Below, piece by piece: positions 25,482-56,032 of a stretch of 64,000 nt of DNA. Both the position numbers and the translations under genes were made by a program. The notes under the pieces are model-generated. The model ran no database searches. It worked only from the letters and a program-made list of their open reading frames with translations, and was not told where the DNA came from. Location: the NCBI GenBank assembly GCA_019058245.1, contig JAHPZJ010000019.1, positions 2,371 to 66,370 of the forward strand, given 5' to 3'. Positions within the stretch are counted from its first letter, which is position 1; the number at the start of each line of letters is the position of its first letter. The DNA comes from Promethearchaeota archaeon. GTDB taxonomy: Archaea > Asgardarchaeota > Lokiarchaeia > Sigyniarchaeales > SOKP01.

Positions 25482-26146
25482 TCCTTTGGTTTTGATAAAA
25501 ATTCCAGGATTTCCTCCTCAGAGATCTCCCCTATTCGTAAAAAACATACATCCTTACCTGTACAATCTATTATCGTGGTTGGAATTCTTGATTTTGATTT
25601 ACCCCCATCAATTATTAAATCTATTGGATTTAATATTTTTTTACTAACATCTTCTCCGCTAATAGAGGGTGGTTCTCCCGAATAATTAGCTGAAGTTCCA
25701 ATAATTCCACCAAAATAACCTTCTGACTTTAAAATTTTTAATATATTTAGTATTATTTCATTTTCTGGAACACGCAACCCTATAGTATCTTGAAATGCAG
25801 TTACTTCTGGAGGTATAATGCTGGGTTCTTTTTTTTTTAAAATTAAAGTTAATTGCCCTGGCCAATATTTTTGTGCTAATCTTTTAGCATTATCATTGAA
25901 TTCAGCAATTTTTGTAGCCTCTTCAAAGTCAGAAATTAATAATAATAATCCTTTTGATTTATCACGGAATTTAATGTCATATATTCTATCTATAACTTCA
26001 AGATTTTGAGGATCTCCTCCTATTCCATAAACAGAATTAGTGGGAAATGCTAAGATCTTTCCTTCAATTATGTTCTCAACTGCTATTTTTAAATAGAAAA
26101 TAATATCCTTCAATTCTTTTCCAGCTAACTTAATTAAAAATCCCAT
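25478..26146 (-). CDS. sua5: L-threonylcarbamoyladenylate synthase (Sua5/TsaC, YrdC domain only)
   Basis: FPTNSVYGIG, K.R, WPGQLT, GLRVP, TSANYSG. Confidence 0.93.
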   Translation of the reverse strand: MGFLIKLAGKELKDIIFYLKIAVENIIEGKILAFPTNSVYGIGGDPQNLEVIDRIYDIKFRDKSKGLLLLISDFEEATKIAEFNDNAKRLAQKYWPGQLTLILKKKEPSIIPPEVTAFQDTIGLRVPENEIILNILKILKSEGYFGGIIGTSANYSGEPPSISGEDVSKKILNPIDLIIDGGKSKSRIPTTIIDCTGKDVCFLRIGEISEEEILEFLSKPKE

Positions 26147-31531: not shown

Positions 31532-31694
31532 AATATATTTATTTAATTTCATTTATTTAAGCTTATCTAATAAATCTGATAGAAAGAGCGGCTTATTAAT
31601 GACTCAATTGTACAATATTTATATAGTATGTAAATTGTATATATTTTATTTCACCTATTAAAACTAATATTGGCTCAAAATTGGTGATACAGAA

Positions 31695-32630
31695 ATGGCT
31701 TATTTGTTAAAAAACCAGTTTGCATTAAAAGCGTCTGATGAATATATTTTAATTGACTATATTTCGAAAAAGGGATTTTTCGACAAATCTGTGAGAGCCT
31801 TAATCTGTTGTAAATTTAAGGTAAAAGGAACTTTGATTTACGATCAAAAGCAACCCCCTCAGGAATACCATTTGAGAATCAATGGAAAGATAGTTCCATA
31901 TAACGATTTAGACACTATAATGGATAAAAAAGCCGGAGAAATTAGCGATCTTGTTTTAATATTTAAAAATGATCTTGGTTTGGAGCCAGGTGAGAAATCC
32001 AAATTTACTTTCTCTGGAAAAGGGAGTAAAATGATGGGTAAGTTGGTTGTCCAGTCTATAAATGAAACAATAAATATTCCAGTTTCCTCAGAGATCGGAA
32101 AAGATGTTTCTTCTGTAGAAACAGTCGGAACAGGATTGGTAAATCAACCACCGCCATCAATTCCAATAGAGATCAGGGAGCAAAATATGAAAATATTAAA
32201 GGAAGCTTATGAAAACTATCTCGATGGTAAATATCCATTTGAAAAGATTAAATCAGAGGCAGATTTTGAAGAGGCTTATAATAACAAGAAGATTTTTGTT
32301 ATTAAGAAGCATATTAAAAAGGATGCTGTTGTAGTTGGTCAAGAAGGGTTTTATTATATTCGCAAGGGAGAGGAATATTATTATCCATGGCCTGAAATTA
32401 AGAATATAGCTTGGGGGAGATTACTTCATGGCAGAAAAAAGCGAATCGTTGTAAATGTTATGTTTTGGGATGACACATTTTTTAGATTTATTCCTGGAAA
32501 ATACGATCAAAGTGAATTTCCAGTTGATTTAACCACCATCGGAATGAAAGGAATAAAAATATATGAAACACTCTTTAGAAAATATTGGAAACCAGACTTT
32601 ACTTTTAAAGAATCATTTCCCAGGGGGTAA
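31695..32630 (+). CDS. Hypothetical two-domain protein, possible C-terminal PH-like fold
   Basis: 311 aa ORF with SD GGTGA; Pro-rich linker; VVGQEGFYY...YPWPEIKNI pattern. Confidence 0.65.
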   Translation: MAYLLKNQFALKASDEYILIDYISKKGFFDKSVRALICCKFKVKGTLIYDQKQPPQEYHLRINGKIVPYNDLDTIMDKKAGEISDLVLIFKNDLGLEPGEKSKFTFSGKGSKMMGKLVVQSINETINIPVSSEIGKDVSSVETVGTGLVNQPPPSIPIEIREQNMKILKEAYENYLDGKYPFEKIKSEADFEEAYNNKKIFVIKKHIKKDAVVVGQEGFYYIRKGEEYYYPWPEIKNIAWGRLLHGRKKRIVVNVMFWDDTFFRFIPGKYDQSEFPVDLTTIGMKGIKIYETLFRKYWKPDFTFKESFPRG

Positions 32631-49751: not shown

Positions 49752-50015
49752 ATCTGTAACTAAACCTTCTCTTAGAGCTTGATTATTTTTATTAAGAACA
49801 ATCATGTTCTTGTTTTTTGAAACACGAAATACATTAATTATTGCCATACTCTCCAACTTCATAAATAATTCTTCTAAAATTAATGAATTTACAAAAGGAA
49901 ATTCTTTTTTGAGAAGTTCCTCCAATCTTTTATCCAATATTTCTCCTTTATTTTTGATTAAAATATCGATTATAGAATTCATTACTGGTTTTTGATTCCA
50001 ACGATGAGATTCGAT
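49743..50015 (-). CDS. Small winged-helix protein (likely ATC start at 50015; ORF track ATG 49982)
   Basis: W..KP...IIDIL.KNKG...D..L and LFMKLE..AII.V pattern of small archaeal wHTH proteins; SD GGTGA. Confidence 0.7.
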   Translation of the reverse strand: MESHRWNQKPVMNSIIDILIKNKGEILDKRLEELLKKEFPFVNSLILEELFMKLESMAIINVFRVSKNKNMIVLNKNNQALREGLVTDLY

Positions 50016-55129: not shown

Positions 55130-55558
55130 TTAATTACTGAAAACTCTATTTATAAGGGTTTTTCCTGCCATTTGCCAATATTCTACTTGAGTTGTTGAGA
55201 TCTTACTAGGCTCTTCTTGAAGCACCTTTAATTTTTTTTTAAGATCCTCATCCTGTGGCCAATCAACATCAAATGATTCATATGATTCCAAATCCATAAT
55301 ATTGATGGATGCATCCTCAATAAAATTAATTTGGGCATTTCCTTTTATAATTTCAGGAGTATCAACGACATGTCCCGATGGAATAGTAAGACTCCTTTTG
55401 TTGTTATCGAACATTCCAACACATACGACTCTTACTTTAGCGTGACCATGTTTCCCGCTTTTTGAACGCTCAGTACTCTTAATGATACATGGCTCTTCAT
55501 CAACCATAATGTATTGTCCTGCTTTTAACTTTTGAATCTCAGTTCTTCTTATTGAAAT
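55130..55558 (-). CDS. eif5a: Translation factor aIF5A (probable ATT start at 55558)
   Basis: Hypusine motif KSGKHGHAK; MDLESYE; conserved N-terminal LK.G.YI lies upstream of the first ATG (55507). Confidence 0.95.
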   Translation of the reverse strand: MSIRRTEIQKLKAGQYIMVDEEPCIIKSTERSKSGKHGHAKVRVVCVGMFDNNKRSLTIPSGHVVDTPEIIKGNAQINFIEDASINIMDLESYESFDVDWPQDEDLKKKLKVLQEEPSKISTTQVEYWQMAGKTLINRVFSN

Positions 55559-56032
55559 GATTTTACACCTTTAATATGATATACTATTAATAAGCTTTAA
55601 TTTTCTATATTATTGTTTTATCATAAATTTTTCTATTGTTTATATCTATTAATAAGAAGAAGGTCTTATTATTATTAAAAGATCTTTAAAAACCTGCTAA
55701 ATAGTTCTTCTTTACGTTCAAAAAATAGGAAACTCAATGTTTAACGATGTCTATTCAGGCGGGTTTCAAAAATATTCTCTTCAATTATTAATTGCTTCAT
55801 ATCTTTAAAATTATCATTAACTTTCAGAACATTAGAAGGTCTTTTAGTTTGTTTTTAATTCTACTCAATCATTGACTTTTTTTTATAAAATAAATTTTAA
55901 CTTCTTAGAGTTAAGACTAAACTGCTTATCTTTTTTAAGATTTAAATTCACTATTGACAGAATAGTTTTTAAAAAATATTCAATTATAATTATAGATTTT
56001 TTAAAAAATATATAAAAATAGGTAAATGGTAT

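Follow-up and report, generated by a model that had tools for sequence, protein, structure and literature searches.

A predicted AUU start codon in the aIF5A gene of a lokiarchaeial lineage, and the occurrence of AUU, AUA and AUC starts across its genus

The window analysed here, a stretch of 64,000 nucleotides from the metagenome-assembled genome (MAG) of a member of the Lokiarchaeia (Promethearchaeota archaeon, GCA_019058245.1), carries on its minus strand a gene for the essential translation factor aIF5A. The features of this gene and of the sequence directly ahead of it are collected in Table 1.

Table 1. Features of the aIF5A gene and its start region in the window (coordinates are window positions).
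Feature	Coordinates	Strand	Remarks
aIF5A coding sequence (proposed)	55130..55558	-	142 codons from ATT 55558, plus stop codon
Start codon ATT (AUU) (proposed)	55556..55558	-	Stands where 48 of 50 congeners have their TTG, ATG or GTG start
ATC	55559..55561	-	Alternative near-cognate codon, 4 nt past AGGTG and directly ahead of the codon that aligns with the relatives' start
Shine-Dalgarno core AGGTG	55566..55570	-	Complementary to CACCU of a congener's 16S 3' end
In-frame TAA	55571..55573	-	Closes the aIF5A frame upstream
Codons 2-17 (SIRRTEIQKLKAGQYI)	55508..55555	-	N-terminal strand 5' of the first ATG; aligns to structured residues of solved aIF5A
Internal ATG (Met18)	55505..55507	-	Start chosen by gene callers, giving a 125-aa product
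Lys36 codon	55451..55453	-	In the S-G-K-H-G-H-A-K motif, read from the translation; hypusine/deoxyhypusine site

Read on the minus strand, the frame that leads into the gene runs TAA, AGG TGT AAA ATC ATT TCA ATA AGA AGA ACT GAG ATT CAA AAG TTA AAA GCA GGA CAA TAC ATT, ATG (55507), which is translated as a stop codon followed by RCKI-ISIRRTEIQKLKAGQYI-MVDEEP. Not one of the 21 codons between the TAA (55573-55571) and the ATG at 55507 is ATG, GTG or TTG, and AGGTG (55570-55566) is separated from ATT (55558-55556) by a spacer of exactly 7 nt (TAAAATC). On both counts an earlier note on this DNA, which had described the frame ahead of the first ATG as closed by TAA without any ATG, GTG or TTG and had placed AGGTG 7 nt before ATT 55558, had read the strand correctly. 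The same note had equated this spacing with that of a GGTGA-ATG pair at 31695. That site does read GGTGA, 7 nt and ATG (31683-31697), but its anti-Shine-Dalgarno register is 8 as opposed to 7, one base further. The Shine-Dalgarno (SD) core at aIF5A comprises 5 bp only, and the internal ATG at 55507 has no strong SD ahead of it. An upstream open reading frame (ORF) or a frameshift was considered and rejected, the remaining frames 5' of the gene holding very short ORFs only (GTG-TAA; ATG-ATA-AAA-CAA-TAA). By eye, a TATA-like stretch can be discerned about 21-35 nt 5' of the ATT in this AT-rich, 29%-GC DNA; if it is a promoter, it could set the transcript start within or past the SD.

The 142-residue product is recognised by Pfam IF5A-like_N (PF21485; 1.4e-14), by TIGR00037 (103 bits, above the cut-off of 75) and by PRK03999 (122 bits, below the cut-off of 138, with profile positions 3-128 of 129 covered). 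In both NCBIfam models, PRK03999 and TIGR00037, residue 3 of the product is aligned with profile position 3. The best solved structure, that of the aIF5A in PDB 8put_E (6.8e-24), has its residue 2 (S-I-T-Y-T) aligned to residue 2 of the query (S-I-R-R-T). Given the registers of the NCBIfam profiles and of 8put_E, the ATT corresponds to residue 1. The family profiles and the solved structure thus agree with the earlier view that the gene encodes aIF5A and that a conserved N-terminal strand lies 5' of the first ATG. The hypusine loop (S-K-S-G-K-H-G-H-A-K) is intact and fits the pattern (S/T)-x-K-x-G-K-H-G-x-A-K; Lys36 is the predicted site of (deoxy)hypusine modification, and a member of the deoxyhypusine synthase family (PF01916; 2.2e-91) is encoded elsewhere in the genome. 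In this 76%-complete MAG, aIF5A gives a single match. The sole database copy of the window's protein is the 125-aa call from the internal ATG (P0031).

Where translation is likely to begin can be seen from the 5' ends of orthologues collected from 50 species genomes of the genus. The codon that precedes S-I-R-R in these genomes is TTG in 42, ATG in five, GTG in one and ATT in two, whereas the S-I-R-R-T-E-I-Q-K-L-K downstream of this variable codon is nearly invariant, and in most of the 50 genomes a stop codon lies directly 5' of it. Since a mixture of Leu, Met, Val and Ile codons stands beside invariant residues and behind a stop, the variable codon is best explained as the start codon. Nearly all congeners carry AAGGTG, typically 9-10 nt 5' of this start, and in other families of the order the start of aIF5A is ATG. 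Between codons 2-17 of the window's gene and those of TTG-type relatives, the synonymous changes number 7-8 and the non-synonymous ones 0-1, which indicates that these codons are translated. The start itself must fall within 55570-55555 because the window has TAA at 55573, and a start common to both lineages with ATT must lie 3' of that codon because the sister lineage has AAA in its place. Aligning the orthologous 5' regions had been suggested as a check in the earlier note, and across the 50 genomes the ATT does align with the TTG, ATG and GTG starts. The claim that aIF5A starts at ATT, by non-AUG initiation, has thereby gained in strength: on the evidence of the 50-genome codon series, the profiles, the structure and the SD spacing, ATT 55558 is the best-supported start and a very probable one. 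Some extra initiation at Met18 may occur besides that at ATT.

Three other accounts of the start region have to be weighed against initiation at ATT 55558. Initiation at a different near-cognate codon, namely ATC 55561, ATA 55552 or AGG 55570, is very unlikely, although each of these lies in frame and is one base off AUG, and although ATC and ATA also serve as starts in this genome. The raw AGGTG spacings of ATC and ATA are 4 and 13 nt, at which a genome-wide histogram of about 70 AGGTG-led starts contains 1 and 0 starts, respectively, as against 16 at 7 nt, and ATT/ATA/ATC starts peak sharply at spacing 7. The AGG at 55570 belongs to the SD itself, and the start of the relatives matches the ATT codon for codon rather than ATC, ATA or AGG.

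Still harder to sustain is a start at the internal ATG 55507, as annotated by gene callers (P0031), which we regard as extremely unlikely. This ATG is the first canonical start codon of the frame and was picked by automatic callers in several assemblies; it is present in all 24 of the tabulated genus sequences and lies inside the profile and structure alignments. A 125-residue protein beginning there would lack 17 N-terminal residues that can be aligned with the family profiles as well as with solved aIF5A structures, and the 17 codons ahead of the ATG are under strong purifying selection, while the ATG itself is without a strong SD. Moreover, the callers chose the same ATG in relatives that clearly start with TTG (P0122, P0123 and P0125), which marks the 125-aa call as a caller artefact. 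These three members of the 125-aa cluster had been considered as further ATT lineages, and were rejected as such when their DNA proved to have a TTG start.

The sequence on which the ATT start depends recurs in independent data. The 110 nt of upstream sequence are identical in four Logan assemblies (SRR26074221, SRR26074225, SRR26074165 and SRR26074164), and a sister lineage with 93% identity in DNA has the same AGGTGTAAAATC-ATT-TCA-ATA (GCA_048885285.1, SRR24270826, SRR30758809 and the species genome G052), with substitutions of its own downstream and AAA where the window has the upstream TAA. In all, seven independent assemblies from three accession series are concordant on the ATT-start sequence. 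Over the whole gene, the two ATT lineages differ by 19 synonymous and 10 non-synonymous changes (dN/dS 0.11), so aIF5A has been kept under purifying selection while carrying ATT. That a start codon was lost by an error in assembly or sequencing, or through decay into a pseudogene, is hardly credible: a one-base error could abolish a start codon and the MAG is only 76% complete, but the identical sequence of four further assemblies, its conservation in the sister species from other data sets, the low dN/dS, the want of a second aIF5A copy in the genome, and the intact hypusine motif together with deoxyhypusine synthase all speak against it. It is highly probable that the aIF5A encoded here is complete and functional, with 142 residues and a predicted translation start at AUU 55558.

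To place the ATT in the history of the genus, a maximum-likelihood tree was built from coding sequences with the start codon excluded, the outgroup being genes from another family that start with ATG. In this tree the window groups with its sister in a clade with support of 100/99, which is nested with two TTG species (L004 and L005; 95/99), and because the ATT clade is nested among TTG species, ATT is derived from TTG. Beyond the motif aaaggtgtaaaa, the upstream region of the ATT clade is unalignable with that of the relatives, and a 301-aa gene, not SRP54, is the divergent neighbour on that side. The spacer between SD and start is 7 nt in the ATT clade, compared with 9-10 nt in the relatives. 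Thus a single replacement of TTG by ATT coincides with the replacement of a 9-10 nt spacer by one of 7 nt, the optimum for ATT/ATA/ATC starts. What is new here is the series of aIF5A starts from 50 species, the derived, nested ATT clade, and the replaced upstream region with its shortened spacer.

Some further observations concern the DNA around the gene. In TTG-type congeners (L004-L008/L015), the approximately 200 nt that separate aIF5A from the divergently oriented SRP54 are very highly conserved, e.g., aaattaaaagaaatgtcaaaattaaaaatattttggataaaaat. The ATT clade instead has some 475 nt of unrelated intergenic DNA (window 55559-56032) adjoining the 301-aa gene, in which its two lineages differ at only about 5 of 200 positions, compared with 7% in the coding sequence. 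In four genomes the aIF5A match is split or cut (G016:C13, G015:C96/C89, G058:C130 and G051), by contig ends, by one TAA, or by a division into two pieces on the same contig; the probable cause is assembly breaks or frameshifts.

The ATT of aIF5A does not stand alone in this genome (3.09 Mb, 29% GC), in which the SD words AGGTG, GGTGA, GAGGT and GGAGG accumulate 5-10 nt ahead of starts. Among ORFs of at least 150 codons, in-frame codons were counted that stand at a normalised SD spacing of 6-8 and at least 5 codons ahead of the first canonical start. This gave ATT 21, ATA 19 and ATC 5, against ATG 67, TTG 31 and GTG 6, while control AT-rich codons (AAT, AAA, TAT etc.) reached at most 4 each. 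Roughly 30% of strongly SD-led long ORFs thus fall to ATT, ATA and ATC, which corresponds to at least about 2% of the long ORFs overall. Their distribution over spacings of 5 to 10 (6, 5, 29, 11, 0 and 4) differs from that of ATG (24, 15, 19, 33, 17 and 16), with a Fisher p of 4e-6 for spacing 7 versus 9-10, and the normalised spacing of 7 at aIF5A is the genome mode for ATT/ATA/ATC starts. The 35 extensions that run for 10 or more codons ahead of the first canonical start score as coding, with 0.46 bits per codon compared with 0.48 for true coding sequence; upstream DNA scores -1.0 bits per codon, but stop codons were allowed there, unlike in the extensions. They read as genuine N-termini, among them those of IleRS, ThiF, uL16/L10e, a response regulator, a universal stress protein and a Rossmann-fold enzyme.

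The same test applied to 400 kb of a congener whose aIF5A starts with TTG (G006) returned ATG 13, TTG 6, ATT 5 and ATA 2, while in 400 kb from another family of the order (G032) ATT/ATA/ATC scarcely rose above background (2 of about 18). One pair of orthologues, in G000 contig 15 (minus strand, coordinate 77984) and in the 400-kb sample of G006 (coordinate 297899), starts with ATT in the former and ATA in the latter, both 7 nt past GGTGA, with the N-termini I-T-T-I-A-C-S-S-S-I-C-E and I-A-T-I-A-C-S-A-S-I-C-E. As these orthologues differ in using ATT or ATA, such starts can persist and interchange between species. Within the window itself, a 90-codon ORF at 50015 on the minus strand (I-E-S-H-R-W-N-Q-K-P) has GGTGA at about 50026-50022 and an ATC at a normalised spacing of 7, 11 codons ahead of the canonical start; this ATC looks like a second start of the ATT/ATA/ATC type. 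A 182-codon ORF at 25502 on the same strand has an ATT at a normalised 8 nt past GGAGG, with the first canonical start 7 codons further on; this could be a chance match or the interior of a longer gene. Taken together, the counts, spacings and coding scores make it very likely that the ATT of aIF5A is one instance of a genus-wide tolerance of AUU, AUA and AUC at tightly spaced, strong SD sites. The gene is a clean, datable example of an unusual start-codon habit that is lineage-wide. A search of the literature on Asgard archaea and Lokiarchaeota found no report of non-canonical or AUU starts.

As to how such a codon might be used, the 16S rRNA of the 76%-complete MAG was not found in the genome, and the anti-SD was taken from the congener G023, whose 16S 3' end reads ...GGATCACCTCCA and contains a CACCU complementary to AGGTG. 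The AGGUG leader would pair with this 3' end and so place the P site on the AUU 7 nt downstream. Initiator Met-tRNA would presumably read AUU by its first two bases, with a mismatch at the third position, and Met would be the first residue. A relaxed checking of the third base throughout the lineage would permit initiation at AUU. The ancestral UUG has given way to AUU in a small clade composed of the window species and one sister species. The sequence comparisons show where the start lies, its descent from TTG, the purifying selection on the gene and the pattern across the genome; for the aIF5A mRNA, we infer the use of the SD, Met as the first residue and the level of expression.

Archaeal aIF1, aIF1A and aIF2 are initiation factors of the eukaryotic type, and the checking of start codons in archaea is a role of aIF1, not of aIF5A. 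The aIF1 of the MAG was not found in the 76%-complete genome. In four congeners, the aIF1 (SUI1) loci (L124, L126, L127 and L128 in G005, G024, G023 and G052, respectively, G052 being the ATT sister species) were located. The aIF1 frame in these four begins immediately behind ...AGGTTGTGATAA, and neither ATG nor GTG occurs in it ahead of the C-P-I-C...C-I-C zinc knuckle; in two of the four, TTG is absent too. In these congeners aIF1 probably starts with an ATT at codon 2-3, whose SD spacing is not the usual 7.

No initiator tRNA was found in the MAG by ARAGORN (with and without introns), by the Rfam tRNA model or by a search for the initiator anticodon arm. One tRNA with A1:U72 on contig 27 was considered as an initiator with an Ile anticodon and was dropped when manual reading of its intron gave tRNA-Gln(CUG). 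This tRNA (G000 contig 27, 39848-39949; L091:99-200) has an anticodon stem closed by three G:C pairs, and its 29-nt intron lies in a relaxed bulge-helix-bulge. Spliced manually, its loop is C-C-C-U-G-A-A, that of a putative tRNA-Gln(CUG) with C33 instead of the usual U33.

A separate question is whether the ATT has a regulatory purpose. The earlier note had proposed that it may act in the manner of infC as a feedback sensor of initiation stringency, and this proposal found no specific support, ATT being present in two of 50 species and ATT/ATA/ATC starts being common in unrelated genes. Weak starts on translation-factor genes are used in this way in both bacteria and eukaryotes, as illustrated by the AUU start of E. 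coli infC (IF3), which is under translational autocontrol, and by the poor-context AUG of eukaryotic eIF1 (PMC4705826). In eukaryotes, depletion of eIF5A increases initiation at upstream near-cognate codons (PMC6917043), and a non-AUG codon, TTG, is the majority state in the genus (42 of 50). That the ATT start makes aIF5A synthesis sense initiation stringency, as the infC AUU or the poor-context eIF1 AUG does, is nonetheless unlikely. Because ATT is found in two of the 50 species, while ATG has arisen in five and GTG in one at the same codon, no particular weak codon has been maintained. ATT/ATA/ATC starts are frequent in unrelated genes, including those for the ribosomal protein uL16/L10e and for IleRS, a housekeeping enzyme, and ATT and ATA starts also occur in the congener G006, whose aIF5A uses TTG. 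The effect of eukaryotic eIF5A is one of queuing of scanning ribosomes (PMC6917043), which is absent from SD-led initiation. A more plausible sensor would be aIF1, which lacks an ATG or GTG start in four relatives, and we know of no start-codon discrimination by aIF5A in archaea; aIF1 is the closer analogue of infC. A combined reading, in which a re-tuned machinery accepts AUU, AUA and AUC at exact SD spacing and the aIF5A AUU, like the aIF1 start of the relatives, additionally couples factor supply to stringency, appears equally improbable. We are thus confident, short of certainty, that the ATT of aIF5A is not a control device specific to aIF5A, and return to its reading as one case of a general tolerance.

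Among described systems, the nearest cases are bacterial AUU and AUA starts behind a strong SD. In S. aureus, infC (AUA), cvfC1 (AUU), ccpN (AUA) and citZ (AUA) have such starts behind a strong, start-proximal SD (PMC13009471). The likeness lies in an AUH codon in the place of AUG, the need for a well-placed SD, a conserved N-terminus and a start overlooked by the usual annotation. The sequence features of SD-directed AUH starts in the present genus are found at aIF5A: an upstream in-frame stop, no canonical start before the conserved N-terminus, an extension under selection and a strong SD core ending 7 nt ahead of the codon, within the 6-8 nt typical of such sites. However, few genes are concerned in S. 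aureus, at about 10-30% of AUG output, whereas here it is about 30% of strongly SD-led long ORFs. A further difference from the bacterial AUH starts is that the present organism is an archaeon with initiation factors of the eukaryotic type. With infC and eIF1, the gene shares its standing as a translation-factor gene with a sub-optimal start signal. IF3 and eIF1 reject poor starts, however, and their weak start is conserved, while the ATT of aIF5A occurs in only two of 50 congeners; a non-canonical start conserved across the lineage, as in infC-type control, was not what the aIF5A series revealed.

For archaea, a review of initiation lists AUG, GUG and UUG as starts, on SD-led or leaderless mRNAs, and leaves AUU, AUA and AUC unmentioned; it also states that SD motifs are not prevalent in the single Lokiarchaeal genome then available (PMC7531240). 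The present lineage resembles canonical archaea in its 16S 3' end (...GGAUCACCUCC) and SD motifs, and in the UUG at which the aIF5A of most congeners starts. In ribosome profiling of Haloferax, alternative sites at near-cognate codons were seen and set aside (PMC7261190). One database entry from the sister lineage, NCBI MFW9989169.1 (153 aa, GCA_048885285.1), likewise gives aIF5A a non-canonical ATT start, but the ATT chosen there lies 11 codons further upstream, without an SD, and in the window lineage is cut off from the gene by the in-frame TAA. This entry is most likely 11 codons too long.

The most immediate consequence of these observations is for annotation, as the protein collection has the aIF5A of the window in a 125-aa version that lacks 17 residues, and many more genes of the genus are likely to have been cut short in the same way. 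If true, a share of about 30% for ATT, ATA and ATC would mean that checking of the third base of the start codon is far looser in this lineage than has been described for archaea. The lineage would then offer a natural system for studying how proofreading of the aIF1/eIF1 type can relax.
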